Source: Nitrospirota bacterium
GTDB lineage: Bacteria; Nitrospirota; Nitrospiria; 2-01-FULL-66-17
Direction: 5' to 3'
NCBI GenBank assembly: GCA_049325335.1
Contig: JBMOMC010000043.1
Location: 373,852 to 437,851, forward strand
DNA length: 64,000 nt
Shown: positions 14,674 through 62,187 of the stretch, piece by piece
Numbering within the stretch: the first letter of the stretch is position 1
How the letters are laid out: the number at the start of each line of letters is the position of its first letter
Position numbers and translations under genes: made by a program
Notes under the pieces: model-generated
Told to the model about the DNA's origin: nothing
The model's database searches: none
The model's input: only the letters and a program-made list of their open reading frames with translations

Positions 14674-14697
14674 GAAAACGGATCAGATCCCGTTTTC
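14674..14697. repeat. Near-perfect palindrome at the left edge of the defence island
   Basis: GAAAACGGATC-A-GATCCCGTTTTC. Confidence 0.65.
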
Positions 14698-14779
14698 CTC
14701 TTACTAAACCAATTTTGTGCGGTATAAGGTATAAAACAGGAAATTGCTCTGTTCGCCACGAAAAATCATATAGATAACG

Positions 14780-16228
14780 ATGCCGGCTAAGGACAAAAAG
14801 CCAACCAAAGACCTGGAAACGCTGCTGGCGCCGTATAACCCGTGGTGGGTGGAGCCGCGTGGCGTCTGGCGTGACAATTTGCCGGAGTATCAACGGCCCG
14901 TGGTGCGGGAGCTGCTAGCCGATCTCGCCGAGTTGCCGCAGATGATTTCCATCACCGGGCCTCGCCGCGTGGGCAAAACAACCGCCCTCAAGCAGGTCAT
15001 TCGTCACTTGTTGGATCACGAAAGCGTCGAGCCCGGTCGCATTCTCTATTTCTCGTTCGACGATCCGGAGGTGTACGGTTCGCCCGATCTCCAGCGGACA
15101 CTCTTCGAGCAACTCGTGACGCATGCTGGGGTGAAGCCGGGGCATGCAGGACGCTGCTATTTTTTCCTGGACGAAATCCAGCGCCTCCCAAAATGGGAAC
15201 TACATCTTAAGAAATACTACGACCTCAAGTATCCCATTCGCGTTACCGTCTCAGGTTCGGCCTCTTCGCCGATTTTCCGAAGCTCGCAGGAAAGTTTGCT
15301 TGGGCGCATCAAAGACCGCCACCTCTTGCCGTTCGGTTTCCGTGAATATTGTCAGTATCACCTGCGCGACCGGCCGCAATTTGCCACGACGCTTGATCGG
15401 TACGCCAATCTGCGTGGTCTTCTGATGGAAGGCAAGGGCACGGAGGTAGTGCAATTCGTGAACGCCATGCATGAGGCGTTCACACCGTTCGAATCCGAGC
15501 TCACCCGCGCAGTTGTCAGCTACTGCCGCGAAGGCGGGTTCCCCGAAGTCTGGAGCCTCCCCGATCCCGTGCGTAAGATGGAGTACCTGATGGAGCAGCA
15601 GGTGCGCAAGGTCCTCTATGAGGACCTCATGGCGCTCACGCAGTACCGCAAGCCGGAGAACGTGCTGCGCTTCTTCGTGTATCTGCTGGCCCATCCGGGT
15701 ATCGAGATCAACATGTCCACGGTGGCGCGTGACGCCGGCGTGGAGCGGCGCGTGGTGGACGAGAATCTCCCGCGCCTTGAAATGACCGACCTCGTCATCC
15801 GCATCCGGAAATTCAGCCACAAGCCGCTGCGTGTTCGCCAGGGGAATATCAAGTGTTACCCGGTGGATCTTGCGCTGCGCAACGCGGTGCTCAAGACCTG
15901 GGACGACTTTACGCAGAACCCGACGATGATGGGCCTCTACGCGGAAAATCTCGTCGCGCACGAACTCAGGAAATGGCCGGAGGCGATCGAGGTGACGTAT
16001 TACCGCGAAAAGGCGCAAGAGGTGGATTTCGTCGTCACACACGGTGGCGCGCGCTACCTGCCCCTGGAAGTGAAACACCGTACGGCGACCGCGGCGGTTT
16101 CGGGGCTGCGGCATTTTCTCAAGAAATTTCGGCTCGATTTTGGCGTCGTCATCACGCGCGATCGCGATTGTCGCTTCGAGCACAGCATCCTTCACTTGCC
16201 GCTTCGATATTTTCTACTCGCGAACTGA
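14780..16228 (+). CDS. AAA_14 ATPase with DUF4143 / PD-(D/E)xK-like C-terminus
   Basis: Walker A GPRRVGKTT, Walker B FFLDEIQ, SGS, GGFPE, ENLV and EVDFV...PLEVK. Confidence 0.85.
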   Translation: MPAKDKKPTKDLETLLAPYNPWWVEPRGVWRDNLPEYQRPVVRELLADLAELPQMISITGPRRVGKTTALKQVIRHLLDHESVEPGRILYFSFDDPEVYGSPDLQRTLFEQLVTHAGVKPGHAGRCYFFLDEIQRLPKWELHLKKYYDLKYPIRVTVSGSASSPIFRSSQESLLGRIKDRHLLPFGFREYCQYHLRDRPQFATTLDRYANLRGLLMEGKGTEVVQFVNAMHEAFTPFESELTRAVVSYCREGGFPEVWSLPDPVRKMEYLMEQQVRKVLYEDLMALTQYRKPENVLRFFVYLLAHPGIEINMSTVARDAGVERRVVDENLPRLEMTDLVIRIRKFSHKPLRVRQGNIKCYPVDLALRNAVLKTWDDFTQNPTMMGLYAENLVAHELRKWPEAIEVTYYREKAQEVDFVVTHGGARYLPLEVKHRTATAAVSGLRHFLKKFRLDFGVVITRDRDCRFEHSILHLPLRYFLLAN

Positions 16229-16328
16229 GGGGAGATGCGTGAAGGCAGTAATCACCATGTCGCCAACAGGCCAAAAAGTAGATCCGTGCCGTGGTTAGCT
16301 ACTCAGCCAACAATAAAATATCTTGATC

Positions 16329-18749
16329 GTGGCTCCTCTGACCGATAAGGAGAAACGCGAACTGCTCCGGCTAATTGAGGCCGGGGAGCCGTTGCCCGAG
16401 AAATGGCGCGGCCGGTTGTTCCCCGGAGGCGTAAGGGGGCCGGAGGTGGGGAAGGAATACCGGCTGGTCTATGACGGCAAGGCGCGGCGGGAGGAGGTGC
16501 TGGCGCAGACGCCGGCGGCGCCGTGGCAACTCGTCCGGCAGTTCTGCACTGAGCGCCCGCATCCGGATGGCTGGCGCAACCTGCTCGTGTGGGGCGACAA
16601 CCTGTTGGCGTTGCGCGAGTTGCTCGCCGACCAGCAGGGACCGAACCGCTTCGGCACGCGCGGCAAGATCCGCCTGATCTACATCGACCCGCCATTCGCC
16701 ACGCGGCAGGACTTCATGAAGGACAAGGAAAAGGCCTACCGCGACAAGGTGCTTGGTTCGCAGTTCATCGAGTTCCTCCGCCGACGGCTCATCCTCCTTC
16801 GCGAACTCCTTGCCGATGACGGCAGCATCTACGTCCACCTCGACTTCAAGAAGGGACACTATATTAAGGCAGTCCTCGATGAAGTCTTCGGTGAAGAAAA
16901 CTTCGTAAACGAGATCGTGTGGCAACGTTCCACGGCACACAACATGCGCACTAAAGGGTGGACGCGGTGCAATGATACATTGCTCTTTTATCGTAGGAAC
17001 GACCGTTTCGTCTTCAACGAGCAATTCGTTGGTTACAGCGCCGAGCAATTGGCCCGTTATAAGCGGGACGAAAACGGTGAACTCTACAAGGGCGAGAATC
17101 TCACCTTTTCTGGAGTAAATAAGGCCCGCCAGTTCACCTGGCGTGGGAGTAAGCCGCCTGCAAATCGCTCATGGGGAGCGGACGAGGACCAACTTGAACG
17201 TTGGTGGGCGGAGGGGCGCATCCTCAAGAAGCAGGACGGTAGCCCCCGCCTCGATGGACTCAAGATTTTTTTGAAGGAAACGAAAGGCGGCAGCCCCGTT
17301 ACGACGAATTGGACGGACATAGAGCGAATCGGTAACACGTCGGAAGAGCGCACGGATTACCCGACTCAGAAGCCTGAACAACTTCTGGGACGCATCATTC
17401 GCGCCTCTTCTAACGAAGGCGATATCATCCTCGACTGCTTCTCCGGCAGCGGCACGACAGCGGCGGTAGCCGAGAAGCTGGGGCGGCGTTGGATCGCGAT
17501 GGATTGCGGCAAGCTGGCGATCTATACGGCGCAGAAACGCCTGTTCTCCCTCACCACCACCATCGGTGCGGTCAAGAAGGACGACCGGAGCGAACCCGAT
17601 CGCGTGGAGGATTGGGGTGAGCATCTCAAAGAGGCGCCCGGTGTTCTCCTCATTACCGAGAAAGCCCGCAAAGGCGAATGCGAGGTGACGCTCGACCTCC
17701 TCGAAGACCTCGCCGCGCTGGTCAAAAAGCACGACCTCATTAAGAAGGATGCCGCGGTCTCGCTCGTCTGTCCCAAGGACAAGTTGAGTATTCCGGGATC
17801 GAAACTTCAAGACACTGACGAAGGCCCCGGCGCCAAGCGAATCAAGGTCAACGGCGTGGAGTTTCGCATCTCGTTCGTGACGGAGAAGGACAAACCGGAG
17901 AAAGACAAGCCCTTGCCGGCGCGGGAGTTCGCGCTGTATCGGGCTGGTGTGTACGACATGGCGGCGATCAAAGCGCTGCCGTGGGCCGAATACCGCCCGT
18001 TCGTGCTAAAGCTTTTCGGCGTGCGCGAACATTCGCACACCCGCTACGGCTTCACACTGGACGGCTACGTGGGCACGCACTCGGCCCTGCTCTGGAATTA
18101 CCCTGACCACAAGAAGCTGACCATCGACCACGGCTACGTGGACGACTTGCACCGCACGCTGCGCGGCAAGCCTGGCGAACGGTTCTACGTCATCGCCCCG
18201 GTTGTGTCGATGGCGTTCGCCGAAGACGAGGTGGTGCGGAACGGCACAACCTACGTCTTCCTCAAGGTGCCAATTTCAGTGCTGCTGAGATTGATCGAGG
18301 CAAAGGAACCCGCGGCGCTGAAGCAACCGACGAAGGAAGCGGACGTGAACGAGGTCATCGACGCGGTCGGCTTCGACTTTATCTCGCAACCTCTGGTGGT
18401 GGTGAAAGCCAAGAAGGAGAAACCGAAAGGCGAGTTGTTCGCGGATTGTGTACTGGAGATCCGCGAGTTTCGTTCGCAGACGCTGGCAACGGACCCGGAG
18501 GACTTCGCCAACTTCGAGACGTTCTCCATGGCCATGGTGGACCTCGACTATGACGGCGACGTCTTCCGGCTGGGCCGGGTTTTCTGGGCTGACGACCTAT
18601 TGAAAGATGCGGGCGGGCTGGAGAAGGCCGAGCGGCTGGCGGTGCGAATTCCTGAGCAGGACTTCATCGGAAAGCGCCTGATGGTGATTCTGTCCGACCG
18701 ATATGGAAACGAAAAGACGCTGGTCTTTGAGAAGAAGGATTTCCGATGA
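16329..18749 (+). CDS. mod: Type III restriction-modification DNA methyltransferase (Mod) with long C-terminal extension
   Basis: GDNL, LIYIDPPF (motif IV), YPTQKPEQLL and LDCFSGSGTT (motif I) in beta-class order; ATGA overlap with Res. Start GTG 16329 or TTG 16323. Confidence 0.88.
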   Translation: MAPLTDKEKRELLRLIEAGEPLPEKWRGRLFPGGVRGPEVGKEYRLVYDGKARREEVLAQTPAAPWQLVRQFCTERPHPDGWRNLLVWGDNLLALRELLADQQGPNRFGTRGKIRLIYIDPPFATRQDFMKDKEKAYRDKVLGSQFIEFLRRRLILLRELLADDGSIYVHLDFKKGHYIKAVLDEVFGEENFVNEIVWQRSTAHNMRTKGWTRCNDTLLFYRRNDRFVFNEQFVGYSAEQLARYKRDENGELYKGENLTFSGVNKARQFTWRGSKPPANRSWGADEDQLERWWAEGRILKKQDGSPRLDGLKIFLKETKGGSPVTTNWTDIERIGNTSEERTDYPTQKPEQLLGRIIRASSNEGDIILDCFSGSGTTAAVAEKLGRRWIAMDCGKLAIYTAQKRLFSLTTTIGAVKKDDRSEPDRVEDWGEHLKEAPGVLLITEKARKGECEVTLDLLEDLAALVKKHDLIKKDAAVSLVCPKDKLSIPGSKLQDTDEGPGAKRIKVNGVEFRISFVTEKDKPEKDKPLPAREFALYRAGVYDMAAIKALPWAEYRPFVLKLFGVREHSHTRYGFTLDGYVGTHSALLWNYPDHKKLTIDHGYVDDLHRTLRGKPGERFYVIAPVVSMAFAEDEVVRNGTTYVFLKVPISVLLRLIEAKEPAALKQPTKEADVNEVIDAVGFDFISQPLVVVKAKKEKPKGELFADCVLEIREFRSQTLATDPEDFANFETFSMAMVDLDYDGDVFRLGRVFWADDLLKDAGGLEKAERLAVRIPEQDFIGKRLMVILSDRYGNEKTLVFEKKDFR

Positions 18750-21346
18750 GTCTGCAGTTCCGTATCGCGGATCAGGTGCTCCGTGTGGACGACGCGCGTG
18801 ATGCCACGGAGGGACGGGTCCACAAATACGACGCGTTCTTGAACCTGCTGTGTGCAGATCGCTATGCCTTTCAGCGTGAGGCGGTGCGCGAGGCCTGGCG
18901 CTTTCTTGTGTCGGACAAATATCCGGACCTCGAACGGCTCGCGCGCGAGAACTGGAACACTCGTGAGGCGATTCGTCAGCGGCACGAAAGTGTAGACGCC
19001 TATCTAGCAAAGATGCCGCTGCGTGGCTGTAAGGCGGTGTCGCTCGACCTAGCGACGGGCACAGGCAAGAGCTTCGTGATGTATGCGCTGGCGGCGATCG
19101 CGTTGGCCGAAGGGCTGGTGGATCGGGTGCTCGTGCTGTGCCCGTCGCTGACCATTGAAGACGGACTGTTGGACAAGTTCACCACGCTGGCGGGCAACAA
19201 CGAGCTGGCGGCGATCATGCGCGAGTTGGGCGCCGTGGTGGCGATTCCAGGCATTAAGCGCGGGAATCAGACCGTTCAGGCCGGCGACATTTGTATTGAG
19301 AACATCCATGCAGTCTACGAAAACGCCGGTTCGTCGATCGCGGACAGTTTCCGTGGCTACGGTGCCCGGACGCTGGTGCTGAACGACGAGGCGCACCACA
19401 TCTTCAGTCCGCTGGACAAGGGGTTGAAGGAGTGGTTGAAATTCCTGCTGCACACGGATTACGGCTTCCGGCACATCGTCAACGTTACCGGCACTCCCTA
19501 TGTCGGTAACGACTATTTCCCTGACGTGGTGTTCCGTTACGGCTTGAAGCAGGCCATTGCCGACAAGGTGGTGAAGAAGCCGAACTACAAGCTGGAAGAC
19601 ACGTACGCCGCGCACGACTGGCAGAAGACCTACGCGATTCATCAAAAGAACCGCAAGGACTACGGCGCGAAACTCAAGCCGATTAGCATCGTGGTTACGC
19701 AGGAGATCGCGCGTTGTGTGGAGGTGTGGCGGGATCTCGTTGAGTTCCTGGTGACGAAGGAGGCGATTAGCCGCGCGGAGGCGGAGCAGAAGGTGATTTG
19801 GGTGACCTCGGGCATTCCGACGGGGGCCACCGACAAGGCGCGAGTTGAAGCGGCTTACGGACCGCGAAACGACAAAGACTCTCCGGAGAAACGGCGCAAG
19901 GAAAATCTCATCCTTCTTCGCACGGTGGACGATCCGGCGAACGACGTGGAGTGGATCGTGTCCGTCAGCATGCTGACGGAAGGCTGGGACGTGAAAAACG
20001 TTTTCCAGATCGTGCCGCATGATTCGCGGGCGTTCTCGTCGAAGTTGCTCATCGCACAGGTGCTCGGCCGAGGGCTGCGCGTACCGCCGGGACTGGTGAC
20101 GGAACCACTGGTGACGATCAACAATCATGAGGCATGGTCGGAGGAAATCGGCAACCTGCTGAAAGAAGTGCTGGAGGTGGAGAACACGCTCTCGTGGGGT
20201 TACGAGGCGCGCCGGGCCGCCTTTGCATTTCCGCTCCACAACCTGCGGTACGAACCGGAGCAGAAGTCGGTGGAAACCAAGCGCGAAAAAGCGCGTGAAC
20301 CCGAGGTGAACTTCCAAACACAGAATCGGAAGACGACGGAGTACTCCACCTTTTCCGAGACCGGCGCGTTGTCAGTCGAAATCCAGCACCTCGACTTACT
20401 TGAGATCGACGACGCGGTGCGGCTTATGCGGCTATTCCTACGGGAGAAAGACGAGAAAATTGCCGCCAAATGGCCAAAGAAACGGCTCCAAGATTTTATC
20501 GTAAGCGGATTGAAGAGGGCGGGGCAAGAGACAACCTTCCTCAGCAAGCAGAACTTTCTGTTGCTCCAGCACAGCTTTGGGCCGATGTTCCGCGAACTCG
20601 ACAAAGAGCATCCGCGCATGACCCAGACGGCGAAAGACCTCGTGCTCATCGACCTCGCTGCGGTGCCACGGCAATCGTTCTCCGAAGACACGCTCAAGGA
20701 GCACGGGACGGTGTACTACGCGAAGGAAGCGCAACCTCCTTACGGCCCACCAGAATTGCACCTGTGGGACCAGTACCAACGCCTCCGCAAGCAGCTTGCC
20801 GATTACGGGAACGACGCGTCCGACCAGGCGAAGGCGGTGGGATCACGACTTCAGGAAGTGGATCCCCCGAAGTTTAAGATGCCTTGGAACGTGCTTTACG
20901 CCAGCCATGAACCGGAGCGAAAGTTCTCCGATTTGCTGTTCCTGAACGCGGAACTATTCGATGGCTTCGTCAAAATGCCGAATCAGGGTGGCTACTCCTT
21001 CCCGTATTCTTACAAGCCGGCAAAGACCGCGAAAACCCACACGGCGAATGAGAACTTTAACCCAGACTTCTTTCTTCGGGTGCGTGGAAAGCACGACATC
21101 CTGGTGATAGAGATCAAGGCCGAAGGCGACGACTCCAACCGCAACCGCGCCAAGTGCCGTGATGGCCAGGCACATTTTCAAACACTTAACGCGAAACTTG
21201 CTGAAAAGCGCGTGCCTTGGTGCTACCACTTCTATTTTCTGTCCCCCGAAGACTTTACGAGCTTCTTCGAGCGAGTTCGGCAAGGCACCCTTGCCGGATG
21301 GAAGTCGGGGTTGATGCAGACGCTTGAAGGTGATCAGGTGGAATAG
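18746..21346 (+). CDS. res: Type III restriction endonuclease (Res), SF2 helicase plus nuclease
   Basis: LATGTGKS, NDEAHH, TGTP, MLTEGWDV, QVLGRGLR; C-terminal NPDF...VIEIK. Confidence 0.88.
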   Translation: MSLQFRIADQVLRVDDARDATEGRVHKYDAFLNLLCADRYAFQREAVREAWRFLVSDKYPDLERLARENWNTREAIRQRHESVDAYLAKMPLRGCKAVSLDLATGTGKSFVMYALAAIALAEGLVDRVLVLCPSLTIEDGLLDKFTTLAGNNELAAIMRELGAVVAIPGIKRGNQTVQAGDICIENIHAVYENAGSSIADSFRGYGARTLVLNDEAHHIFSPLDKGLKEWLKFLLHTDYGFRHIVNVTGTPYVGNDYFPDVVFRYGLKQAIADKVVKKPNYKLEDTYAAHDWQKTYAIHQKNRKDYGAKLKPISIVVTQEIARCVEVWRDLVEFLVTKEAISRAEAEQKVIWVTSGIPTGATDKARVEAAYGPRNDKDSPEKRRKENLILLRTVDDPANDVEWIVSVSMLTEGWDVKNVFQIVPHDSRAFSSKLLIAQVLGRGLRVPPGLVTEPLVTINNHEAWSEEIGNLLKEVLEVENTLSWGYEARRAAFAFPLHNLRYEPEQKSVETKREKAREPEVNFQTQNRKTTEYSTFSETGALSVEIQHLDLLEIDDAVRLMRLFLREKDEKIAAKWPKKRLQDFIVSGLKRAGQETTFLSKQNFLLLQHSFGPMFRELDKEHPRMTQTAKDLVLIDLAAVPRQSFSEDTLKEHGTVYYAKEAQPPYGPPELHLWDQYQRLRKQLADYGNDASDQAKAVGSRLQEVDPPKFKMPWNVLYASHEPERKFSDLLFLNAELFDGFVKMPNQGGYSFPYSYKPAKTAKTHTANENFNPDFFLRVRGKHDILVIEIKAEGDDSNRNRAKCRDGQAHFQTLNAKLAEKRVPWCYHFYFLSPEDFTSFFERVRQGTLAGWKSGLMQTLEGDQVE

Positions 21347-21364
21347 CGAGAAATTGGGTGTGAG

Positions 21365-21391
21365 AGAAATTGGGGTCGGAGAACAATTTCT
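21365..21391. repeat. Imperfect palindromic junction site
   Basis: AGAAATTG-GGGTCGGAGAA-CAATTTCT, preceded by a partial direct copy GAGAAATTGGG at 21348-21358. Confidence 0.6.
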
Positions 21392-21395
21392 GATT

Positions 21396-21446
21396 TACGA
21401 CATCAAGTACCGCATGGGGCGAGACGCGGAGGGCGAGGAGGATTGA
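21396..21446 (+). pseudogene. C-terminal stub of an Eco57I-like DNA methyltransferase / R-M protein
   Basis: Reads YDIKYRMGRDAEGEED-stop. I recall YDIKYRMG as the C-terminus of a family of Eco57I-domain methylases (not searched). Confidence 0.6.
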
Positions 21447-21449
21447 CTG

Positions 21450-22648
21450 ATGCCGCGTAAACCCACCAAGCCGAAAGCACCCCAAGGCGGTCTGAGCTTC
21501 ACCGCGTCGGTGGAAGCGGTCCGCCAAGTGCACGAGCACAGCGCGGCCGCGGCCGGCCGGGCGGTGAACACCAGCCTGACTCTGCGCACTGGGCCATCGG
21601 TTGCTACATCGTCGAGTACGAGCAGAACGGGGCCGACCGGGCGCAGTATGGAGAGCGCATGGTGGATCGCCTGGCCGAGGAGTTGCGCCGCCGCGGCGTC
21701 CCGGCCAGCGACCGCCAGAGGCTCTACGCCTACGTGGGCTTTTATCGCGCTTATCCGCAGATCGGTGAGGCGATTCCGGCCGCATGGGCCGTTCATGGTC
21801 TTTCTGCTGTGCCGACGCGACCGACCAAGATTGTCCGGTCACTGACCGGACAATCTGCCGATACCGCCAACGCAAAGGACATTGTCCGGTCAGCGACCGG
21901 AATAAGTCCGACCTCGGGGCAGATGCTCGTGGACCGCCTGTCCTACACCCACTTGGAACTGCTGGCCGGGCTGGACGACCCGCTCAAGCGCTCCTTTTAC
22001 GAGATCGAGTGCATCCGCGGTAACTGGTCGGTGCGAGCGCTCAAACGCCAGATCGCGACCCTGTATTTCGAGCGGTCGGGGCTGTCTACCGATAAGGACA
22101 AGCTGGCCGCCATGGCCCACGCCGCCGCCGAACAGGCCGAGCCGAGACTCGCGATCCGCGACCCCTACATTTTCGAGTTTCTCGGTCTGAACCCCAAGGA
22201 CGCGGCGGCCGAGTCGGACGTGGAGGACGCCCTGCTGGACAACGTGCAGGAGTTTCTGCTCGAGATGGGGCACGGCTTCTGCCTCGAAGCGCGGCAGAAG
22301 AGCATCGTGATCGGCAAGACGCGCGGCTTCGTGGACCTGGTCTTCTACCACCGCATCCTCAAGTGCCATGTGCTCATCGAGTTGAAGGTGGACGAGTTCC
22401 GCCACGAACACTTAGGCCAGCTCAACACCTACGTGACCTGGTATCGCCAGCACATGATGGCCGACGGCGACAACCCGCCGATCGGCCTCCTGCTCTGCAC
22501 GCAGAAAGATCACGCGCTGGTGGAATACGCCGTAGCCGCCATCGACAGCCGCCTGTTCGTCTCCAAATACCAGCTCGAACTGCCGAGCAAGGAAGATCTC
22601 CAGCGGTTCCTGGAGGACAAGCGCCGGGAGATGGGCGATCATGGGTGA
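21450..22648 (+). pseudogene. yhcG: YhcG / DUF1016 PD-(D/E)xK nuclease, frameshifted near 21588
   Basis: N-terminal ...RAVNTSLTLR continues as WAIGCYIVEYEQ..RAQYG in another frame (CGC AC TGG; one base missing). C-terminal RDPYIFEFL, FLLEMG.GF, DLVFYHR.LKC.VLIELK and GQLNTY. Confidence 0.85.
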
Positions 22649-23270
22649 AGGGAAGAGACAACCTCCCGTGGCACAGCGCATCGGACGCGGAGCCAGGGAG
22701 TACCCGGCGATCCTCCTTTCCCGCCTTGGCGACCACGCCCCCGAGGAATTGACCGCGCTCGGCAACCCGGCGCTGCTTTGCACGCGCAGGACCGCGCTGT
22801 TCTGCTCCGCCCGCACGCCCGGCGACGCCATCCTGCGCGCCCACGACGCGGCCCGGCGCCTGCGCGATGAGGGCGTCACGGTCATCAGCGGCTTTCACTC
22901 GCCGATCGAGAAGGAGTGCCTGCACATCCTTCTGCGTGGCAAACAGCCCATCATCATCTGCCCCGCACGCGCCATCGAGACGATGCGCATCCCTAATGAG
23001 TGCCGCGCCGCGTTTGACGCAGGGCGAGTGCTGTTCCTGTCGCCAGTTACGACACAACCCAAGCGTGTGACCAAAGAGTCGGCCCTTCGCCGGAACGAGG
23101 CTGTCGCTGCTCTGGCGGACGCGGCCTATATCGCACATGTATTCCCGAATGGCCAAACCGAACACATCGCGGCGATGCTCGAACGATGGGGCGTTCCGAT
23201 GTTGGAGGATGGTCGGGGTAAGGGAAAGGCTCGTGATCAGGTCTTGCCCTGCAACACAGGATGCGCTTGA
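22641..23270 (+). CDS. Short DprA/SMF-like SLOG-fold protein
   Basis: GNPALL, ALFCS, VISGFHSPIEKE, IICPAR and RRNEAVAALAD. Confidence 0.75.
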   Translation: MGEGKRQPPVAQRIGRGAREYPAILLSRLGDHAPEELTALGNPALLCTRRTALFCSARTPGDAILRAHDAARRLRDEGVTVISGFHSPIEKECLHILLRGKQPIIICPARAIETMRIPNECRAAFDAGRVLFLSPVTTQPKRVTKESALRRNEAVAALADAAYIAHVFPNGQTEHIAAMLERWGVPMLEDGRGKGKARDQVLPCNTGCA

Positions 23271-23409
23271 GGTGAGAGCGTCGTGGGTGGTCGGTTGCCT
23301 GTCAGGGGCTGCGCCCAACGAGACATCCCTCAGAGGGGCCTCCGGGCCTAGCCTAGTTATCGGGCAGATCACTCCCTGCGGGACGCTGCTTAATGCGTCG
23401 AATCCGGGT

Positions 23410-23616
23410 TCACCGGGTTTTCCGTTTCGTCGTGTCCACCCCGAACTTTGCGTTGAGCGGGCAGTAGCCGGTGAAAGCCGTGGCAATCCCCAGCAGCGCG
23501 ACGAGCGCGAAGATGATTTTTAGGAGGATACTCCCGGTGACAAATGTGAGCGCCAGGGAGAGAAAGCCGATTCCGAATCGGTAGAAGCGGTCCAGACCGC
23601 CGACGTTCTTTTGCAT
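23410..23616 (-). CDS. DUF2892 / YgaP-like small membrane protein
   Basis: KNVGGLDRFYR, two TM helices, GYCPLNAKFG; GGAGG RBS. Confidence 0.85.
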   Translation of the reverse strand: MQKNVGGLDRFYRFGIGFLSLALTFVTGSILLKIIFALVALLGIATAFTGYCPLNAKFGVDTTKRKTR

Positions 23617-23669
23617 GGTCACCTCCGCGTGCTGCTCAGCATGTCTCGTCGCGTCATCCCGACAGTCCA

Positions 23670-23948
23670 TTGGCTAAGAGGCGCATCGAACTCGGCGTGG
23701 CGGCGCAAGGCGCTGAATCGGTGTTTTACACCCGCGACACCGGCGCGGGATTCGACATGCAGTACGCGGACAAACTCTTGCGCGCGTTCGAGCGGCTCCA
23801 CGCCCAGAGCGAATTCGACGTCACCGGGATCGGTCTGGCCACCGTGGATCGCATCATCCGCCGCCACGGTGGGAGGATCTGGGCGGATGCGGAGCCGGGC
23901 CGCGGCGCGACTTTCCGATTTACTTTAGCGGCGAACCGATCAGGCTAA
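23670..23948 (+). pseudogene. Histidine kinase HATPase_c C-terminal fragment
   Basis: RDTGAGFDM..ADKL..FERLH..TGIGLATV.RII.RHGG.IW only; no N-box or HisKA region; degenerate G1/F/G2 residues. Confidence 0.75.
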
Positions 23949-24272
23949 GATGCCCAGAACGTTTTCCTCACGGACCATCACGAACTCTTCGTTGTCGATG
24001 GTAACTTTCGAGCCCGCATACCGCTCGTAGAGGACCTTGTCCCCCGGCTTGAGCGTGGTCTTGACATAGACCTTGTCTTCGGCCGCGGTTTTTTTCTTGC
24101 CGGAACGGTAGTCGTCGTCTTTGGACTTCCAGCGGCCTTCGCCGATTGCGATCACTTCACCTTCTTGCGGTTTTTCCTTGGCCGAGTCCGGGATGTACAG
24201 ACCACCCGCCGTCCGTTCGTCACCGGACGACTGTTTGATCACGGCCCAATCGTGTAACGGTCGAATCTTCAT
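23940..24272 (-). CDS. groES: Co-chaperonin GroES, stand-alone
   Basis: MKIRPLHD, TAGGLYIPDSAKEKPQEGEVIAIG, GDKVLY..YAG; strong GGAGGAGG RBS. Confidence 0.93.
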   Translation of the reverse strand: MKIRPLHDWAVIKQSSGDERTAGGLYIPDSAKEKPQEGEVIAIGEGRWKSKDDDYRSGKKKTAAEDKVYVKTTLKPGDKVLYERYAGSKVTIDNEEFVMVREENVLGILA

Positions 24273-24390
24273 AGCTACCTCCTCCCCTCGCTTGCGTAAC
24301 GCAACGCAGGCGCGTCTTTTGCGCCGAGGCTGCGAGACGCTGTTGACCTTATCTGTGGAGAAGAATTATAGGGATCAGGTCCGTCCCGAA

Positions 24391-25827
24391 TCAAGCCGTT
24401 CCGCGGTCCCGTTGGGCGCGGGGGTCCATGGCGTCGCGCACCACGTCGGCAAAGAGGTTGGCGGACAGCACCAATGCGAGCATGAAGGTGAACGCGGCCG
24501 CGAGCGACCACCACACCATGGGCTCACGCGCCATTTCCAGACGGGCGCCGTTGATCATGGTGCCCCAACTGATGGTGGTGGGGTCCACGCCCACGCCCAC
24601 GTAGGACAAGACCGCTTCGGCCAGCACCAGGCCGGAAAAGTCCAAGACCACGGTGATGAGCACGATGTGCATCACATTGGGCAGAAGGTGTCGCAGCATG
24701 ATGGTCATGGACCCTGCACCATACGCCCGTGCGGCCTGGATATATTCGGCTTCGCGCAGCTTGAGGGTTTCGCCGCGCAGCAAGCGGCACAACCCGGTCC
24801 AACTCGTTACGCCCAAGATGGCGCACAGAAACAACAGGCGCGCGTCCGCGCGCACCGCCGCGGTGTCGAAGAGGTCGGGATGGAGCGCAATATACGCCTG
24901 GAGCGTCAAGATGGCGGCGGCGATGAGCAACACGCCGGGGATCGAACTCAACGTGGTGTACACGTATTGGATCAGGTCGTCCGCCCAACCCCTCCAGTAC
25001 CCGGCCATAATACCCAGCATGACCGCAAACGGCAGCATGATGAGCGTGGTGAGCGTGCCGATCACGATACCGGTGCGGATACTCTTGAGCGACAGATACA
25101 ACACATCGTTGCCCACCTTGTCGGTACCCAGCACGTGGTACTTCACGGCCCAATGGCCGATCACGAAGCCGAGCACGATCAGCGCGCCGAGCGTGACGAG
25201 GATCACGCGCCAGGGGGTATCCGTGCGGCCCTGCGCCAACCGCGCGAACATCTCGGTCCACGCGAGGCGGTGACGCCGCGCTTGCCACGTCACCAGCAGC
25301 AGGACGATCACCAGCCAGACCAGCAATCCCCGCATGAACCCGGCGATCGCCGTGGTCGCGATGTCCGGCCCGCGGTCCGTCGTGGGATCGGCCAGGTGCG
25401 CGCCGCCGTACTGTAACCGGGGGAAATCCCGCGCCTGCGTGCCGTCGGGTCGTTCGATGGTTTCTTTCGCGTACGAGTGGGCGGCGAACGGGGCGGAGTA
25501 CGTCTTTTCGCCGCGCGTTTTGAGCGGAAGGACCACGGTGTCGAGCAGGCTCACCACTTCGGTCGAGTAATCCACGCGATCCACGCTCCCCGGGGTGTCC
25601 GACGGGGGGAGCGGCAGGCGGAAGTGCATTGAGTCCAACAGGCCGACGGTCGCGTACGCGCACAAGACGACCAACGCGGCCATGCCCAGCGGGTGTCGCC
25701 GCACGTGGCGCCACGGCGCGCGCAAGTGCTCGCGCGTGCTCGCGTACCAGCCGGCGGCCACGGCGACCCCGACCAACACGAACAGCAGGGCGTCCGTCCA
25801 TAACACGACCGGCTTGACCGGGATCAT
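24391..25827 (-). CDS. Peptide/nickel ABC transporter permease (DppC-like)
   Basis: LGTDKVG.DV, EYIQAARAYG, RHLLPN, EAVLSYVG. Confidence 0.9.
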   Translation of the reverse strand: MIPVKPVVLWTDALLFVLVGVAVAAGWYASTREHLRAPWRHVRRHPLGMAALVVLCAYATVGLLDSMHFRLPLPPSDTPGSVDRVDYSTEVVSLLDTVVLPLKTRGEKTYSAPFAAHSYAKETIERPDGTQARDFPRLQYGGAHLADPTTDRGPDIATTAIAGFMRGLLVWLVIVLLLVTWQARRHRLAWTEMFARLAQGRTDTPWRVILVTLGALIVLGFVIGHWAVKYHVLGTDKVGNDVLYLSLKSIRTGIVIGTLTTLIMLPFAVMLGIMAGYWRGWADDLIQYVYTTLSSIPGVLLIAAAILTLQAYIALHPDLFDTAAVRADARLLFLCAILGVTSWTGLCRLLRGETLKLREAEYIQAARAYGAGSMTIMLRHLLPNVMHIVLITVVLDFSGLVLAEAVLSYVGVGVDPTTISWGTMINGARLEMAREPMVWWSLAAAFTFMLALVLSANLFADVVRDAMDPRAQRDRGTA

Positions 25828-55425: not shown

Positions 55426-55433
55426 TGCGAGCC

Positions 55434-56603: not shown

Positions 56604-56651
56604 CGGGTCACGCGGCTTTCGCGCGGCGCGCGCCGCGATGCGGGGACACGG

Positions 56652-56987: not shown

Positions 56988-57186
56988 CCGTCCCTCCGCG
57001 TCAAAGTGGGGCGGATTATAGCACGGCAGATCACTCTTCCCCAGTGCGAGAGACCGAGGTGTCCATGCGAACAAGGCCTGCCCTGCCGCTTGGTTTCGGT
57101 CGGTCTTCGCGGGTTCCGGGATCGGATTGTATTGGGTTGCGTCGGGTTCGCCTCCGGTCCCGGCTCTGTGGTAGCATGCCGGCGCC

Positions 57187-58512
57187 ATGGACCTGTTTAC
57201 CGCCGACCCCCCAAAGTCCGCCGAGCCCCGCCCGCCGCTTGCTGAGCGTATTCGGCCCCGCAGTTTGGATGAGTTCGTGGGCCAGGAGCATTTGGTGGGC
57301 AAGGGCCGGTTCTTGTCTTCGGTGCTCCAAGCGGAGCACCCGCCGTCGTTGATCTTCTGGGGGCCGCCGGGTTCCGGCAAGACCACGCTCGCGCATTTGA
57401 TCGCGAACAGCACCAAGTGCCGGTTCGTATTTTTCTCTGCGGTGCTGTCCGGCGTCAAAGAAGTGCGCGAACTGGTGGCCGAGGCCAGGACCCGGCGGCA
57501 GCACGGCGAACGCACGATCTTGTTCGTCGACGAAATCCATCGCTTCAATCGCAACCAGCAAGACGCGTTCCTCCCGCACGTGGAAGACGGCACCATCGTG
57601 TTGATGGGCGCGACCACGGAGAATCCCAGCTTCGAGGTCAACGCGCCGTTGCTCTCGCGCTGCAAGGTGCTCACGCTCCGGCCCCTGCGCGTGGAGCAGG
57701 TGGTGACGTTGCTGCGACGGGCGGTGAACGATCACGAACGCGGCGTGGGCGACTTGGGCGTGGTCTGCGACGACGAGTTGCTGGCCGAGATCGCAGAGTG
57801 GGCCGAGGGCGATGCGCGGCGCGCGCTCAACCTGCTGGAGCAATCGCTCGCGCTCTGCGCCGTGACCGACGGCCGACGGCTGCTCAGCGCGCGCGAGGTG
57901 CGCGAGGCCGCGCAGCACCGCGTCTTATTGTTCGACAAGGGCCGGGAAGAGCACTACAACGTTATCTCCGCGTTGATCAAGAGCCTGCGCGGCAGCGACC
58001 CCGATGCCGCGGTGTACTGGCTGGCGCGGTTGCTGGAGTCCGGGGAGGACCCGTTGTTCGTGGCGCGGCGGATGGTCATTTTCGCGTCCGAGGACGTGGG
58101 TAACGCGGACCCGCAAGGGTTGGTGGTTGCGGTGGCTGCGTTGCAGGCGTTCCACGCGGTAGGCATGCCGGAGGGCTGGATTCCGTTGAGCCACGCGGCC
58201 ACGTACCTGGCCACCGCGCCCAAGAGCAACGCAAGTTACGTGGCGTACCGCCGGGCCGCCGCGGAGTTGCAAGACAGCGGCACGTTGCCGGTGCCGTTGC
58301 ACTTGCGCAACGCGCCGACCAAGTTGATGAAGGCCGAGGGGTACGCCGAAGGGTATCGCTACCCGCACGATTTCCCGGGGCACGTGGTCAGCCAACAGTA
58401 CCTGCCGGATGCGTTGGCGGGGCGTCGCTATTACGACCCCGGCGATCAAGGCTACGAGCGCGAGATCGGTCGCCGCCTCGAAACGTGGCGAAACGACTCC
58501 GAGGAAGAATGA
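57187..58512 (+). CDS. rarA: Replication-associated recombination protein A
   Basis: PLAERIRP, WGPPGSGKTT, DEIHRF, ATTENPSF, KSLRGSDPDAA, SEDVGNADP. Confidence 0.95.
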   Translation: MDLFTADPPKSAEPRPPLAERIRPRSLDEFVGQEHLVGKGRFLSSVLQAEHPPSLIFWGPPGSGKTTLAHLIANSTKCRFVFFSAVLSGVKEVRELVAEARTRRQHGERTILFVDEIHRFNRNQQDAFLPHVEDGTIVLMGATTENPSFEVNAPLLSRCKVLTLRPLRVEQVVTLLRRAVNDHERGVGDLGVVCDDELLAEIAEWAEGDARRALNLLEQSLALCAVTDGRRLLSAREVREAAQHRVLLFDKGREEHYNVISALIKSLRGSDPDAAVYWLARLLESGEDPLFVARRMVIFASEDVGNADPQGLVVAVAALQAFHAVGMPEGWIPLSHAATYLATAPKSNASYVAYRRAAAELQDSGTLPVPLHLRNAPTKLMKAEGYAEGYRYPHDFPGHVVSQQYLPDALAGRRYYDPGDQGYEREIGRRLETWRNDSEEE

Positions 58513-58563
58513 GGCCCGCCGCGCTTGCATTGTGCTCGGAGGCCTTGCTATTCTGGCGCCGCC

Positions 58564-59178
58564 TTGGGTGCCGAGGACGAGCGCGAACACATACGTCGGG
58601 CCGCGTTGGCCCGACGCGACGCGTTGGCGCCGGAGACCCGCGACGCGTGTAGTCGCGCGATCGCGGATCGGTTCTGGGCCTTTCCCGAGGCGGCCGCGGC
58701 TCGGACGGTGCTGCTGTCGCTGTCGGTCGGCAGCGAAGTGTCCACGCGGACGCTGGTGGCTGAGGCGAGGCAACGCGGGCTGCGGGTGGCGGTGCCGGTG
58801 ACGTTGACGGCCGAGCGCCGTTTGCTGGCGGTGGAGTTCCCGGGGGAGGACCGGTTGGAACCGGGGCCGTTCGGCATTCTCCAACCCCGTCCCAACGTGC
58901 GGGTGCCGGTGCCGGTTGATCGACTCGATCTGATTGTGGCGCCCGGCGCGGCGTTCGACCCGCGCGGGAATCGGTTGGGGTGGGGCGCGGGGTATTATGA
59001 TCGGTTGCTGGCGGGGCGTCGTGCCGGCGCGCCGATCGTGGCGTTGGCGTTCGAGTGTCAAATCGTGCCGGCGATTCCGTCCGAGCCGCACGACGTGCCG
59101 ATGGACGTGATCGTGACCGAACAACGAGTGATCAGGTCCCGACGAGGGGCCGGGGTCAGCGAGATGAAAGGGGAGTGA
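58564..59178 (+). CDS. 5-formyltetrahydrofolate cyclo-ligase
   Basis: [44 protein letters not shown]; start uncertain (TTG 58564). Confidence 0.92.
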
Positions 59179-59180
59179 AC

Positions 59181-60050
59181 GTGGCGGCGCAGTTGATCGA
59201 CGGCAAGGTGATTTCCAAGGCAGTCAAAGAGGAGGTGCGCGCGCGGGTTGACGCGCTGATCGCCAAAGGCATCCGACCGGGCCTGGCCACGGTGTTGGTG
59301 GGAGAGGACCCGGCATCCCAGGTGTACGTGCGCAACAAGCAGCGCACGTGCGAGGAACTCGGGATGCACACGGTGGGGCACAACCTGCCCGCCGCGACTT
59401 CGCAAAGCGACTTGTTGGCGTTGATTCAGCGATTGAACGCGGATCCCGCGATCCACGGGATCCTGGTGCAACTGCCGTTGCCCAAACCGCTGCGCAGCGA
59501 GCCGATCCTCAACGCCATGTCGCCGGACAAGGACGCGGACGGGCTGCACCCGTTCAATATGGGCAAACTCCTGATGGGCGAGCCGCGGTTCGTCCCGTGT
59601 ACGCCCGCGGGGGTGATCGCGATGTTGGATTACCACAAATTGCCGATCGAGGGGAAAACCGCGGTGGTAGTGGGCCGCAGCAACCTGGTCGGCAAACCGG
59701 TCGCCCTGCTGTTGATGCACCGGCACGCCACGGTGACCGTGTGTCATTCCAAGACGCCCAACCTCGCGGAAGTCTGTCGGCGCGCGGACATTGTGGTGGC
59801 GGCGATGGGTAAGGCGCATTTTATCACCGGCGACATGGTCAAGGACGGCGCGGTGGTGATCGACGTGGGCATCAACCGGTTACCGGACGGTAAACTCGTC
59901 GGCGACGTGGACTTCGCGGCGGTCGCGCCCAAGGCATCGTGGATCACCCCGGTGCCGGGGGGAGTCGGGCCGATGACGATCGCGATGTTGATGCAGAACA
60001 CGATGCTGGCCGCGTCCATGACCGCGGACGCGGGGCAGCATCGGCACTGA
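59181..60050 (+). CDS. folD: Bifunctional methylene-THF dehydrogenase/cyclohydrolase
   Basis: [40 protein letters not shown]. Confidence 0.96.
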
Positions 60051-60059
60051 GGAGAGAGC

Positions 60060-60938
60060 ATGCGGCGATTGCGCGAAGTCATTGAATCAGGCCAATTTGC
60101 GGTCACGGTCGAATGCGAACCCCCCAAGGGCGCAGATGTCACGGCCGTGCTCTCGCGCACCAAGGCGTTGGTGGGGCGCGTACACGGCATCAACGTCACG
60201 GACAACCAGGCGGCCGTGATGCGGATGTCGTCGTTGGCCATGTGCCGGTTGCTCTATGAGCAGGGCCACGACCCGGTGCTCCAGTTGACCACGCGGGACC
60301 GTAACCGATTGGCGCTCCAATCCGACCTGCTGGGCGCGCACGCATTGGGCATTCGCAACGTGCTCTGCCTGCGCGGCGACGATCCCAGCGTGGGGGACCA
60401 CAAAGACGCCAAGCCCGTGTTCGATTTGGACGCGGCGCAACTGTTGGGCGTGGTGAACGGACTGAATGCGGGCAAGGATTTGGCGGGCAACGCGCTCAAG
60501 GGCGCGACCGACTTTTTCCCCGCGGCCGCGGTCAGCCCGGAAATGGTCCCACCGGAGCCGCAACTGGCCGGCCTCCAGAAGAAGATGGCGTCGGGCGCGC
60601 GGTTTTTCCAGACCCAGGCGGTCTACAACCCGGACCGGTTCGGCGCGTTCATGGACAAGGCGCGGCCGCTCGGCGCGCGTATTTTGGCCGGTATCGTGGT
60701 ACTCAAGTCCGCCAAGATGGCCGAATACATGAACAAGAACATCCCCGGCATCTCGGTGCCCCAGCCGCTCATCGACGAGTTGGCCGCTGCGAGCAAGGAG
60801 GAGGCCCTGGGTGTGGGCATCGACATTGCGGTGCGGCTCATCGGCCAACTCCGCCCCCTGTGCCAGGGCGTGCACATCATGGCCGTGGGCGCGGACCAGG
60901 CCATCCCGGAGATCCTCACCCGCGCGAAACTTTCCTAA
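60060..60938 (+). CDS. metF: Methylenetetrahydrofolate reductase
   Basis: E..PPKG, NVTD, TRDRNR.ALQS, GDDP, FFQTQ, GVHIM. Confidence 0.9.
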   Translation: MRRLREVIESGQFAVTVECEPPKGADVTAVLSRTKALVGRVHGINVTDNQAAVMRMSSLAMCRLLYEQGHDPVLQLTTRDRNRLALQSDLLGAHALGIRNVLCLRGDDPSVGDHKDAKPVFDLDAAQLLGVVNGLNAGKDLAGNALKGATDFFPAAAVSPEMVPPEPQLAGLQKKMASGARFFQTQAVYNPDRFGAFMDKARPLGARILAGIVVLKSAKMAEYMNKNIPGISVPQPLIDELAAASKEEALGVGIDIAVRLIGQLRPLCQGVHIMAVGADQAIPEILTRAKLS

Positions 60939-61741
60939 TGGCGCCCCCGCGCGTCACGGTGCCGGAACTGCAACGGCGCAAAACCGACGGCGAGCGGATC
61001 ACCATGGTGACCGCGTACGACTATCCGTTCGGCCGCATCGCGGACGAAGCGGGCATCGACGTGATCCTGGTGGGCGATTCAGTGGGCGTGGTGGTGCAAG
61101 GCCACAGCACCACGTTGCCCGTGACCATGGACCAAATGATCTATCACACCGAGATGGTCACCCGAGCCGCGCGGCGGGCGTTGATCATCGGCGACATGCC
61201 GTTCATGTCGTTTCAAGTCTCCGACGAAGAGGCGGTGCGCAACGCGGGCCGCTTCATCCAAGAGGGCCACGCGGCCGCGGTCAAATTGGAGAGCCCGCCC
61301 TCGATGATGTCGCGCGTGGCCGCGATCGCTGCCGCGGATATTCCCGTGATGGCGCACCTGGGTCTGTCGCCGCAATCGATCCACAAGATGGGCGGGTACA
61401 AGGTGCAGGGCCGCACGCCTCCGGCCGCGCAGCGATTGCTCGACGATGCCAAACGCGCGGAGGACGCGGGCGCGTTTGCGGTGTTGATCGAAGGCGTGCC
61501 CCCACCCGTGGCCAAGAAAATCACCAAGGCGCTGTCGATTCCCACGGTGGGCATCGGCGCTGGGCCCGGCTGCGACGGGCAGGTGCTGGTGTTGCACGAT
61601 TTGCTCGGCCTGTTCGTGGAGTTCAGCCCCAAATTCGTCAAGCGCTACGCCAACCTGCGCGAAACCGCGCTCAAAGCCTTGATCGCGTATCGCAACGAAG
61701 TGATGACGGGCCGATTTCCGACGGCGAAAGAAAGTTACTGA
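60938..61741 (+). CDS. panB: 3-methyl-2-oxobutanoate hydroxymethyltransferase
   Basis: TAYD, LVGDS, DMPF, VKLE, HLGL.PQ, GIGAG, DGQVLV.HD. Confidence 0.96.
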   Translation: MAPPRVTVPELQRRKTDGERITMVTAYDYPFGRIADEAGIDVILVGDSVGVVVQGHSTTLPVTMDQMIYHTEMVTRAARRALIIGDMPFMSFQVSDEEAVRNAGRFIQEGHAAAVKLESPPSMMSRVAAIAAADIPVMAHLGLSPQSIHKMGGYKVQGRTPPAAQRLLDDAKRAEDAGAFAVLIEGVPPPVAKKITKALSIPTVGIGAGPGCDGQVLVLHDLLGLFVEFSPKFVKRYANLRETALKALIAYRNEVMTGRFPTAKESY

Positions 61742-61816
61742 CTGCTTACGCGATGGAGTGGTCCGACCAGGGGCCGGAGCTGGGGGTTGCCTCAGACAGC
61801 CTGGAAACAGTCACGA

Positions 61817-62187
61817 AAAATAAATCCGTCCCCTTATCACGTCCTATAAAGAGAATAATCCGGCGAGGATTTAAGCTGCTTCTGGCTGTGATGGCGATAG
61901 GACTTGTCTACGGAGGCGTGAACCCTAGAACAATTTACGGTGTCACAATCAATCAAGCTAATTTCGGTGGATTCTTTCTTGTCTTTTTTGGACTATATTC
62001 CTTTATGTTTCATAATTCCGGTCTACATCGGGGAGAGACAAGAAATCCTTGTGAGGGGCTGGTGGGCAATCCTCATTAGGATTGCCCTTATCGCAACCGG
62101 CGGTTTCGTCCTCCTGAAGTTCGGTGGCTCGGGACCATGATGGGGACGTTCTTCAGAATACAAATGAAAAGGGGACGGATTTATTTT
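61817..62187. mobile_element. AT-rich segment bounded by perfect 19-bp inverted repeats, carrying a broken membrane-protein gene
   Basis: AAAATAAATCCGTCCCCTT (61817-61835) and AAGGGGACGGATTTATTTT (62169-62187); interior visibly lower in GC; no transposase. Confidence 0.65.
61836..62140 (+). pseudogene. Truncated/frameshifted small membrane protein
   Basis: Hydrophobic segments FKLLLAVMAIGLVYGG and FGGFFLVFFGLYSF in one frame (stop 62079); WWAILIRIALIATGGFVLL in another (stop 62140). Confidence 0.5.

Follow-up and report, generated by a model that had tools for sequence, protein, structure and literature searches.

The closest described systems are TIRYT/TIRtron elements, TIR-flanked Y1/HUH transposases of TnpA-Y1 subclass 2.1, named in 2013 by Di Nocera, De Gregorio and Rocco with the consensus GGGGWSAS (PMC3733652). 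In these elements, Y1 genes lie between inward terminal inverted repeats (TIRs) that share this consensus and may overlap the 3' end of the gene, and TIR copies are also scattered as singles, dimers and groups (PMC3733652). The available parts of that paper do not connect TIRs with cargo, with the borders of accessory DNA or with duplications at junctions; its Figure 9 and Additional file 5 may list the end types reported here. Subclass 2.1 has long Y1 proteins with a Y---NP motif and no canonical REP nearby (Quentin et al. 2018, PMC6006769), and is reported from 14.9% of strains (PMC6006769). TIRYT/TIRtron elements are widespread, yet only two works in the literature that we searched name them. 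In the REP, BIME and REPIN systems, an HUH Y1 enzyme (RAYT, or TnpA-REP) likewise acts in trans on short extragenic repeats (PMC3333891, PMC8266576). Integrons (IntI, attI, attC) are similar in having short sites between small accessory genes, in arrays in some genomes.

The window, a stretch of 64,000 nts from a Nitrospirota genome (G000), contains short sites that are orphan terminal inverted repeats of TIRYT elements. They belong to this known, named repeat class, constitute no new recognition motif, and are positioned between the modules of two islands with no counterpart in congeneric genomes (Table 1). Unlike the described TIRYT/TIRtron elements, they are solo ends without a neighbouring transposase gene, they face outward around cargo, and they read GGGGWCGG instead of GGGGWSAS; within these families, the copies that flank genes have GGGGWCAG, and external copies have A or G at that position. 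The window includes no complete TIRtron, its pair at 61817 and 62169 being outward-facing. Compared with REPs and REPINs, the sites have no GTAG foot (the tetranucleotide GT[AG]G at the foot of a GC-rich hairpin is not present at them) and no obligatory hairpin. TIR sites are also low in copy number, with 68 dispersed sites in G000 over nine patterns (3 in each of two Markov genomes), and they are enriched in variable rather than stable DNA; inward TIR dimers shorter than 150 nts, of which there are 11, resemble REPINs. Compared with integrons, the window has no integrase and no attC-like match (a rough scan for RYYYAAC...GTTRRRY hairpins places none of 15 genome-wide matches in it), the end-families are mixed, the junctions are imprecise, and the chemistry is that of HUH enzymes, not of tyrosine recombinases. 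An Rfam search found only a tRNA.

Table 1. Features of the two accessory islands. PWM scores refer to the 62-kb end-family.
Feature	Position	Strand	Remarks
Accessory defence island	14525..23409		Between DUF748 gene and small core gene; approximate borders; GC 0.595
Probable decayed TIRYT end, 62-kb family	14674..14697	-	Self-complementary; GGG head towards AAA gene; 12.5 bits (at 14691), 0.11 expected per 64 kb
AAA_14 + DUF4143 ATPase (PADLOC PDC-S01-like), cargo	14780..16228	+
Weak TIRYT end, probably decayed, 62-kb family	16273..16290	-	Between AAA and Mod; 9.3 bits (at 16291), 0.35 expected per 64 kb
Type III-like Mod (N6_N4_Mtase) + Res (ResIII) pair, cargo	16323..21346	+
TIRYT end, second family	21365..21391	+	Preceded by 11-nt tandem duplication of its own outer end
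3' stub of type IIG restriction-methylase gene	21396..21446	+	Cut 0-5 nt past the 21365 TIR
Frameshifted YhcG/DUF1016 nuclease + DprA-like gene, cargo	21450..23270	+
Further decayed TIRYT end	23235..23255	+	Family of TIRYT L001 of G000
Accessory island, 1.2 kb	61742..62927		Between panB and next core gene; GC 0.546
Intact TIRYT end, 62-kb family	61817..61835	-	GGGG head towards AT-rich fragment; 38.1 bits (at 61833)
Low-GC hydrophobic ORF remnant, orphan	61836..62140	+	GC 0.47; frameshift near 61990
Possible decayed end, further TIR family (GGGGACGTTC type)	62142..62161	+	Weak
Intact TIRYT end, 62-kb family	62169..62187	+	GGGG head towards AT-rich fragment; 41.8 bits (at 62171)
Phd/YefM antitoxin + ParE toxin pair, cargo	62287..62855	+
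Possible decayed end, 62-kb family, right island border	62907..62925	+	8.0 bits, 0.59 expected per window

The short sites and their cognate transposases

An earlier note on this DNA described five related sites (14674, 16273, 21365, 61817 and 62169) with a shared core. All five sequences are present where it placed them, and the match of 16273 to the 61.8-kb copy at 14/17 positions is correct, but they are not one motif. On a PWM of the 62-kb family trained on 115 external, non-seed copies, 21365 scores -5.6 bits; we therefore assign it to a different end-family and reject a single motif for all five. Judged by their sequences, the TIRYT ends in the window represent at least three end-families. 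A composite pattern made from the earlier description has no match anywhere in the window, and the bare core GGGGWCGGA is nonspecific, with 117 genome matches. The 62-kb 19-mer with at most two mismatches has 3 genome matches versus 0.0 in three order-5 Markov genomes, and the 21365-type end also has 3 versus 0.0, so that the three strong sites (61817, 62169 and 21365) are far above chance level. The first two form a 23-nt inverted repeat with 96% identity. Because of their low PWM scores relative to chance expectation, 14674 and 16273 are each borderline alone; they are probably weak, decayed copies of the 62-kb family. A clearer site of that family occupies the same place and orientation as 14674 in G004. 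The exact 14674 palindrome has no copy in metagenomes, and a relaxed pattern gives 6 matches in 5 other genomes among 401, mostly variants of the 62-kb family. The end at 23235, absent from the earlier note, agrees at 19/20 nts with the 3' TIR of L001 and has 3 mismatches to its family pattern. The two weak candidates at 62142-62161 and 62907-62925 had also gone unnoticed: the former has 4 mismatches to the GGGGACGTTC pattern, a level at which there are 33 matches versus 6.3 expected, and the latter is not significant by itself.

An alternative takes the sites for terminators, for operators of regulators, or for A/T-tract motifs that arise by chance in intergenic DNA of low GC. Sites 14674 and 21365 each form an 8-bp stem (z of -3.0 for 14674), and 14674, 16273 and 62907 are each near chance. 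The 62-kb sites show no folding (z about +0.3 and +0.7), which leads us to reject a hairpin or terminator as the common principle, and yet exact copies of them are present in at least 127 stretches from distant genomes; moreover, each of the two strong end types brackets intact Y1 genes as an inverted pair. This explanation is refuted for the three strong sites, and could still apply to 14674, 16273 and 62907; as an account of the whole we consider it highly improbable.

As the earlier note had stated, no integrase or transposase is in the window: none of the 53 ORFs scanned matches such families, and there is no Y1 gene. All four Y1 genes of G000 lie outside the window, flanked by inward GGGGWC TIRs of other types than the window's main ends. 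Searches of G000 with PF01797 and with the L101 protein returned these same four genes and no cognate TIRYT for the two main end types. Elsewhere, both end types flank Y1 genes as inward inverted pairs. The 62-kb ends lie on both sides of intact HUH/Y proteins of 231-239 aa in five metagenome loci (L375-L378 and L380), and 21365-type ends flank a 236-aa TIRYT in G015 (L313) and a 233-aa TIRYT in G006 (L314). The 21365 end itself matches at 22/24 nts a copy 830 nts upstream of the intact G015 gene, whose own two TIRs are both of the 21365 type. Named intact enzyme-end pairs are thereby identified for the two main end types of the window, and the enzyme class guessed in the earlier note, an HUH/Y1 RAYT-like transposase from elsewhere, is confirmed; its expectation of Y1 genes flanked by the motif holds in other genomes and metagenomes and not in G000. 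PF01797 is above cut-off for L313, L314 and L101, and HUH and Y---NP motifs are seen in the cognate proteins; in L101 the HUH motif is damaged. Subgroup 2.1.2 has Bac_DnaA_C or HTH tails (PMC6006769), as do the three G000 proteins scanned, whereas the cognate proteins of the main ends are shorter (230-240 aa), with an RGRP-type tail and no Pfam HTH match, and we infer that they belong to subgroup 2.1.1. Some of the five metagenome loci are near-identical to one another.

Islands, edges and accessory DNA

Both islands are absent in congeners. The defence island is missing in G001, G002 and G003, where its flanks are about 80-260 nts apart, and G001 has 33 bp in place of the panB island. The same loci carry other cargo elsewhere: in G004, different genes lie next to a TIR after DUF748, and in G006 a different low-GC gene flanked by two outward ends follows panB. 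One gene is truncated at a site. From 21396 on, the methylase stub after 21365 aligns to the final codons of a type IIG REase-MTase gene that is intact in a relative, G027; the YhcG and DprA genes that come next in the window come next there too. The earlier note had claimed truncated genes at two or more sites; for the fragment between 61817 and 62169, which is AT-rich as it reported (GC 0.47 versus 0.64 for the window), a site-made truncation is not borne out. It reads as a hydrophobic ORF split by a frameshift; a homolog search with the second half of that ORF (49 aa) gave none, and there are no direct repeats of at least 14 nts, as from a target-site duplication, in 61600-63100.

The enrichment of sites in accessory DNA that the earlier note foresaw is strong. 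In G001, 28/29 classed TIR-bearing intergenic regions are in unshared DNA versus 407/1087 of the others (p=4e-11), and in G000 the counts are 14/15 versus 288/937 (p=9e-7). Of the TIR sites, 34/45 are in unshared segments of at least 500 nts, versus 5/89 copies of a 130-bp repeat family.

Such an association could arise passively, if TIRtrons or their miniature dimers enter or accompany recently gained DNA, are tolerated in it and decay to solo ends, while the cargo comes separately, through homologous or illegitimate recombination, integrons or other elements. Several observations fit passive scars. Only 12/121 and 13/116 colinear gaps of at least 300 nts have a site, leaving about 90% of variable segments without one, and three to five of the eight candidate sites in the window are decayed. 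The genome holds other acquisition machinery, including two integron-integrase matches above cut-off. Homologs of the window modules in 401 genomes of one phylum are 64-77% identical and without matching brackets; the 15 loci examined have no TIR brackets around AAA, Mod-Res or toxin-antitoxin homologs, and one AAA homolog has another GGGGAC-type site close by. Near island edges, solo sites stand 26-277 nts away from where the alignment ends, with the inner side towards the host in 7 cases and the outer side in 8 (hand count). With 83% mean identity and intergenic DNA that does not align, breakpoints are located to alignment ends and not to the base, and the comparison of empty and filled alleles thus places the edges near the sites, not demonstrably at them. 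Although 17/24 site-bearing gaps have a site within 250 nts of an edge, we do not count this as evidence because edges are intergenic and gaps hold few genes. A GC difference between outer and inner flanks is not seen either: the outer flank is lower in GC at 39/74 external sites (p=0.51).

Other observations go against a purely passive origin, which we regard as rather unlikely. The 130-bp repeat family, also dispersed, is not tied to large unshared segments. Decay of whole elements predicts inward pairs or random solos, and yet neighbouring solo sites are outward around cargo in 8 cases and inward in 1 (hand count, window pair included). For two TIRtrons at orthologous loci in G000 and G001, homology breaks off no more than 1 nt from the GGGG at each of the four ends, and the DNA beyond differs between the two genomes. 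Finally, an intact end adjoins the gene truncation at 21365.

Proposed recombination at transposon ends

We favour, with a probability of roughly 0.55, the reading in which imprecise transposon-end recombination by a TIRYT acting in trans assembled the islands and the ends are its scars. The enzyme would recognise the GGGGWC-headed end on single-stranded DNA, nick close to it and join the nick to another strand. A usual cut at the outer GGGG edge would give small tandem duplications; outer-end duplications of at least 8 nts are found at 24/116 sites, whereas shuffles give 0.6 and inner ends have 2. An occasional cut on the inner T-tract side would give truncated genes. Ends would move with neighbouring DNA and turn into joints, and repeated events at permissive loci, such as those after DUF748 and after panB, would stack unrelated cargo (defence, toxin-antitoxin and membrane genes), with leftover ends as scars. 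The process would be imprecise recombination rather than ordered cassette integration at one site. The chemistry is taken by analogy from other Y1 subclasses: in vitro, TnpA-REP from E. coli cuts on the 5' or the 3' side of REPs and recombines ssDNA (PMC3333891, PMC8266576). An active role of TIRYTs in assembling the cargo is likely; the literature searched holds no report of experiments on any TIRYT. Contigs of three sequencing runs show no joints at sites in 12500-25500 and no circular or empty forms, which is uninformative on activity, as the one run that carries the whole region may be the source sample itself and another has scattered pieces only.

A more tentative proposal is that accessory genes are captured and shuffled at TIRYT ends, which would be joints that can be used repeatedly, as in integrons but driven by an HUH enzyme; a stationary or distant TIRYT might cut at the GGGG edge and add foreign ssDNA there. 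If so, defence mosaics in the Nitrospirota lineage would be built in this way, as would the orphan toxin-immunity arrays that follow Rhs/CDI genes in Pseudomonas, and the ends would provide an unrecognised route for assembling such islands and arrays; if not, they would still help to mark DNA acquired recently. TIR ends as cassette joints or immunity-array links are undescribed in the literature searched, which mostly excluded subscription journals, and the main text of a 2026 Stenotrophomonas Rhs preprint mentions neither transposases nor palindromes. The comparative evidence added here is that TIRYT ends mark accessory DNA far more than the other repeat family does, that the flanks of stationary elements switch exactly at the GGGG, and that truncated genes adjoin ends.

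Rows of sites in G000 and Pseudomonas

The earlier note proposed an integron-like cassette system. The data do not show such a system; solo sites lie near host breakpoints, not demonstrably at them. In a form close to that idea, a domesticated TIRYT would serve as a dedicated platform that adds, excises and reorders cassettes at TIR ends or dimers. We think this improbable: no discrete or identical cassette is found in two contexts among the 401 genomes of one phylum, end-families are mixed around one cargo, truncations and duplications make the joints imprecise, only 6/80 loci have a Y1 gene within 2.5 kb, and the three runs have no circular or empty form. What speaks for a platform is that TIRtrons are stationary between congeners and that sites can be closely spaced. 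On contig C2 of G000, 13 sites line up within 10 kb. In Pseudomonas loci, small low-GC genes follow one another downstream of Rhs/DUF637 toxin genes, and between them lies the same end type, mostly in the form of short inward dimers; 12/75 loci have at least three junctions within 5 kb. These modules include Pfam CdiI_3, Imm35 and Imm42 and an SMI1/KNR4-like gene.

Accessory islands and their sites

Two stretches of the window are accessory. In the congener G001 the next core gene starts 33 bp after panB, so the DNA between them here is accessory; likewise, the gene at 23410 closely follows the DUF748 gene in G001, G002 and G003, which makes the intervening defence island accessory. The two islands carry an AAA/DUF4143 ATPase, a type III-like Mod-Res pair, a frameshifted YhcG, a DprA-like gene, an orphan hydrophobic ORF and a Phd-ParE pair.

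Features of the window, with scores on the position weight matrix (PWM) of the 62-kb end family
Feature	Position	Strand	PWM position: bits (expected per window)	Remarks
tRNA gene	12131-12214			~2.4 kb upstream of the defence island, which is not inserted into it
Defence island	~14525-23409			after DUF748
Repeat	14541-14609			common to other G000 and G001 loci; between DUF748 and site 14674
GC-rich hairpin	~14600-14625			z -3.05; between DUF748 and site 14674; we take it to resemble the neisserial dRS3 motif
Site	14674-14697		14691: 12.5 (0.11)
Site	16273-16290		16291: 9.3 (0.35)
Site, 21365 type	21365-21391	+	-5.6	outer-end tandem duplication of 11 nt
Repeats	21830-21901			21-nt direct and inverted, within the frameshifted YhcG gene
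Added candidate	23235			19/20 nt match to a terminal inverted repeat of G000 transposase L001
Island after panB	~61742-62927			1.2 kb
Site, 62-kb type	61817-61835	-	61833: 38.1
Added candidate	62142			weak
Site, 62-kb type	62169-62187	+	62171: 41.8
Added candidate	62912		62912: 8.0 (0.59)

All five sites proposed in the earlier note can be read in the sequence at the coordinates it gives. Their bare GGGGWCGGA core is unspecific (117 matches in the 3.25-Mb genome), but the 62-kb pair's 19-mer taken whole, allowing up to 2 mismatches, has 3 genome matches versus 0.0 in order-5 Markov genomes, as does the 21365 type. At least 127 stretches from other genomes contain the exact 62-kb 19-mer (80 loci listed). 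With a PWM built from 115 unique external copies, none containing the seed, the only window positions above 7 bits are the five in the Table, each inside one of the two islands. The score of the 21365 site assigns it to a different family, and the idea of one motif for all five sites falls. Left-hand sites are minus-strand and right-hand sites plus-strand in each island, which turns the GGGG heads towards the island interior.

The methylase stub beside the 21365 site is indeed truncated, as the earlier note had it. In the related genome G027 the type IIG restriction-methylase is intact and stands ahead of the same YhcG and DprA genes; homology to that methylase starts in the window at 21396, 0-5 nt past the site.

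Transposases flanked by matching ends

The genome holding the window (G000) has four PF01797 (Y1_Tnp) genes, all beyond the window and each lying between inverted repeats that point inward and begin GGGGWC. The three proteins scanned have HTH or Bac_DnaA_C tails; the fourth gene has a stop within it. Such a layout, a Y1/HUH transposase gene between inward terminal inverted repeats (TIRs, consensus GGGGWSAS), is that of the TIRYT/TIRtron elements (Di Nocera et al. 2013, PMC3733652), tentatively equated with subclass 2.1 by Quentin et al. 2018 (PMC6006769). RAYT Group 1 of PMC5581495, a possible counterpart, is described there as somewhat IS-like. The family is already known, and what we add is a quantitative link to accessory DNA and named enzyme-end pairs, which make the role of TIR ends a testable question.

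Neither of the window's two main end types is found at the four G000 genes. Of 80 metagenome TIRYT loci, 78 were examined (the other two began mid-protein); in L375-L378 and L380 the 62-kb type lies on both sides of intact 231-239-aa HUH/Y proteins. A 236-aa TIRYT in G015 has 21365-type ends, with a third copy that agrees with the 21365 site at 22/24 nt, and G006 has a 233-aa TIRYT with related ends. These pairs identify the window's two main site types as TIRYT ends and agree with the HUH/Y1 enzyme guessed earlier from the window, and we consider it very improbable that the sites are non-transposon motifs. One G001 element is preceded, at C38:2615-3004, by part of a TIRYT gene, its 5' end with the TIR, copied in tandem.

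Distribution of ends and how it might arise

We scanned genomes with nine patterns taken from gene-flanking TIRs and the window's strong sites, finding 68 sites in G000 and 48 in G001 (2.24 Mb of ~3.2 Mb covered); two Markov genomes gave 3 apiece for comparison with G000. Using 437 one-to-one anchors between the two (83% mean identity; genes from a simple in-house caller), TIR-bearing intergenic regions fall in unshared DNA in 28/29 classed cases of G001 (5 unclassed) versus 407/1087 others (p=4e-11), and in 14/15 of G000 (23 unclassed) versus 288/937 (p=9e-7); the window's own sites are counted in the G000 tally and absent from the G001 tally. Colinear unshared segments of at least 500 nt hold 34/45 classed TIR sites (71 unclassed dropped), against 5/89 for a control 130-bp repeat family (20 dropped) and 9/22 for a control short hairpin family (7 dropped). 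The first outcome that would have refuted the earlier note, hits no commoner at accessory junctions than in other intergenic DNA, is thus not what we see; these ends are the opposite of canonical REPs, which are reported as depleted in variable DNA (PMC3390384). One 10-kb row near a contig end (G000 C2:443403-453558) has 13 TIR sites of four end-families, with four inward dimers.

Whole elements have sharp edges. For two TIRtrons at orthologous G000/G001 loci, homology ends at the GGGG head, to within 1 nt, at all four ends, and the DNA outside differs. The block outside one of these TIRtrons is partly common to G003 and G004 and the whole region is absent from G004, so this is an island with the element inside rather than a simple addition. 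Tandem duplications of at least 8 nt overlap the outer end at 24/116 sites; shuffled sequences give 0.6, and inner ends have 2. By hand count, neighbouring solo ends point outward around cargo in 8 cases and inward in one. The E. coli enzyme TnpA-REP makes nicks in ssDNA on the 5' or the 3' side of its repeat and carries out strand transfer (PMC3333891, PMC8266576). We infer that TIRYTs may act likewise in trans on GGGGWC ends, that the ends would carry and join neighbouring DNA imprecisely, and that they would pile up as joints in permissive loci; we give this reading a probability of roughly 0.55. Passive decay of ends in tolerated DNA is a weaker candidate, at perhaps half that credence.

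A dedicated integron-like platform, close to what was first proposed, is unlikely. Against it stand the few colinear gaps with a site (12/121 and 13/116) and the solo sites near edges, which are 26-277 nt away from where the alignment stops and, by hand count, have the inner side to the host 7 times and the outer side 8 times. Homologs of the window modules in 401 genomes are few, 64-77% identical and without matching end brackets, and the 74 external sites compared have no GC contrast between their flanks. Contigs of three sequencing runs show no joints at the sites over 12500-25500, which one run, maybe the source sample, covers fully and a second in scattered pieces. The window has no attC-like match, as had been said, and two integron-integrase matches lie outside it, on C38 and C40. 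Two of the four G000 TIRtrons, L001 (C40, ~65200-65700) and L002 (C11, ~2190-2950), directly adjoin attC-like sites and low-GC genes.

Host loci in relatives and other genomes

Relatives carry different cargo at both host loci. At the panB locus of G006, a low-GC ORF of 158 aa stands between two outward ends, one of the 21365 type and one of the 62-kb type. At the DUF748 locus, G004 has a second copy of that gene's 3' end and a 62-kb-type end oriented as site 14674, with what we take (partly by eye) to be a toxin-antitoxin pair and, past the TIR, Vsr-like and cytosine-methylase-like genes. There (L038, C122:1-1900), the 3' 173 bp of DUF748 are duplicated around the pair, followed by the TIR and other defence genes, so the locus is an independent insertion hotspot.

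Among the matches listed, 36/75 non-overlapping external loci with the 62-kb end have a short inward dimer and 12/75 at least three junctions within 5 kb; 6/80 of the loci listed have a Y1 gene, or what is left of one, no further than 2.5 kb away. The Pseudomonas junctions stand between small low-GC genes that lie downstream from Rhs or DUF637 toxin genes; several of these small genes belong to named immunity families. Literature searches found no paper on an association of TIR ends with toxin-immunity arrays; a preprint (10.1101/2020.03.09.984088) suggests that TnpA-REP may diversify lanthipeptide genes in a comparable way, calling causality unsupported. Array-like Pseudomonas loci, with 62-kb-type dimers between successive orphan toxin-tip and immunity genes, are L054, L064, L069/L070, L080/L081, L082, L089, L090, L102/L103 and L105. 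A 62-kb-type end occupies one host position in G000 (C1:5789), G004 and G006 (L211, L212; two genera), with different outer-side DNA. In other genomes of the class, around small toxin-antitoxin-like genes (labelled by eye), the 62-kb type forms inward pairs in G022 (C35, C51; L202, L203) and direct repeats with identical flanks in G009 (C87; L207).
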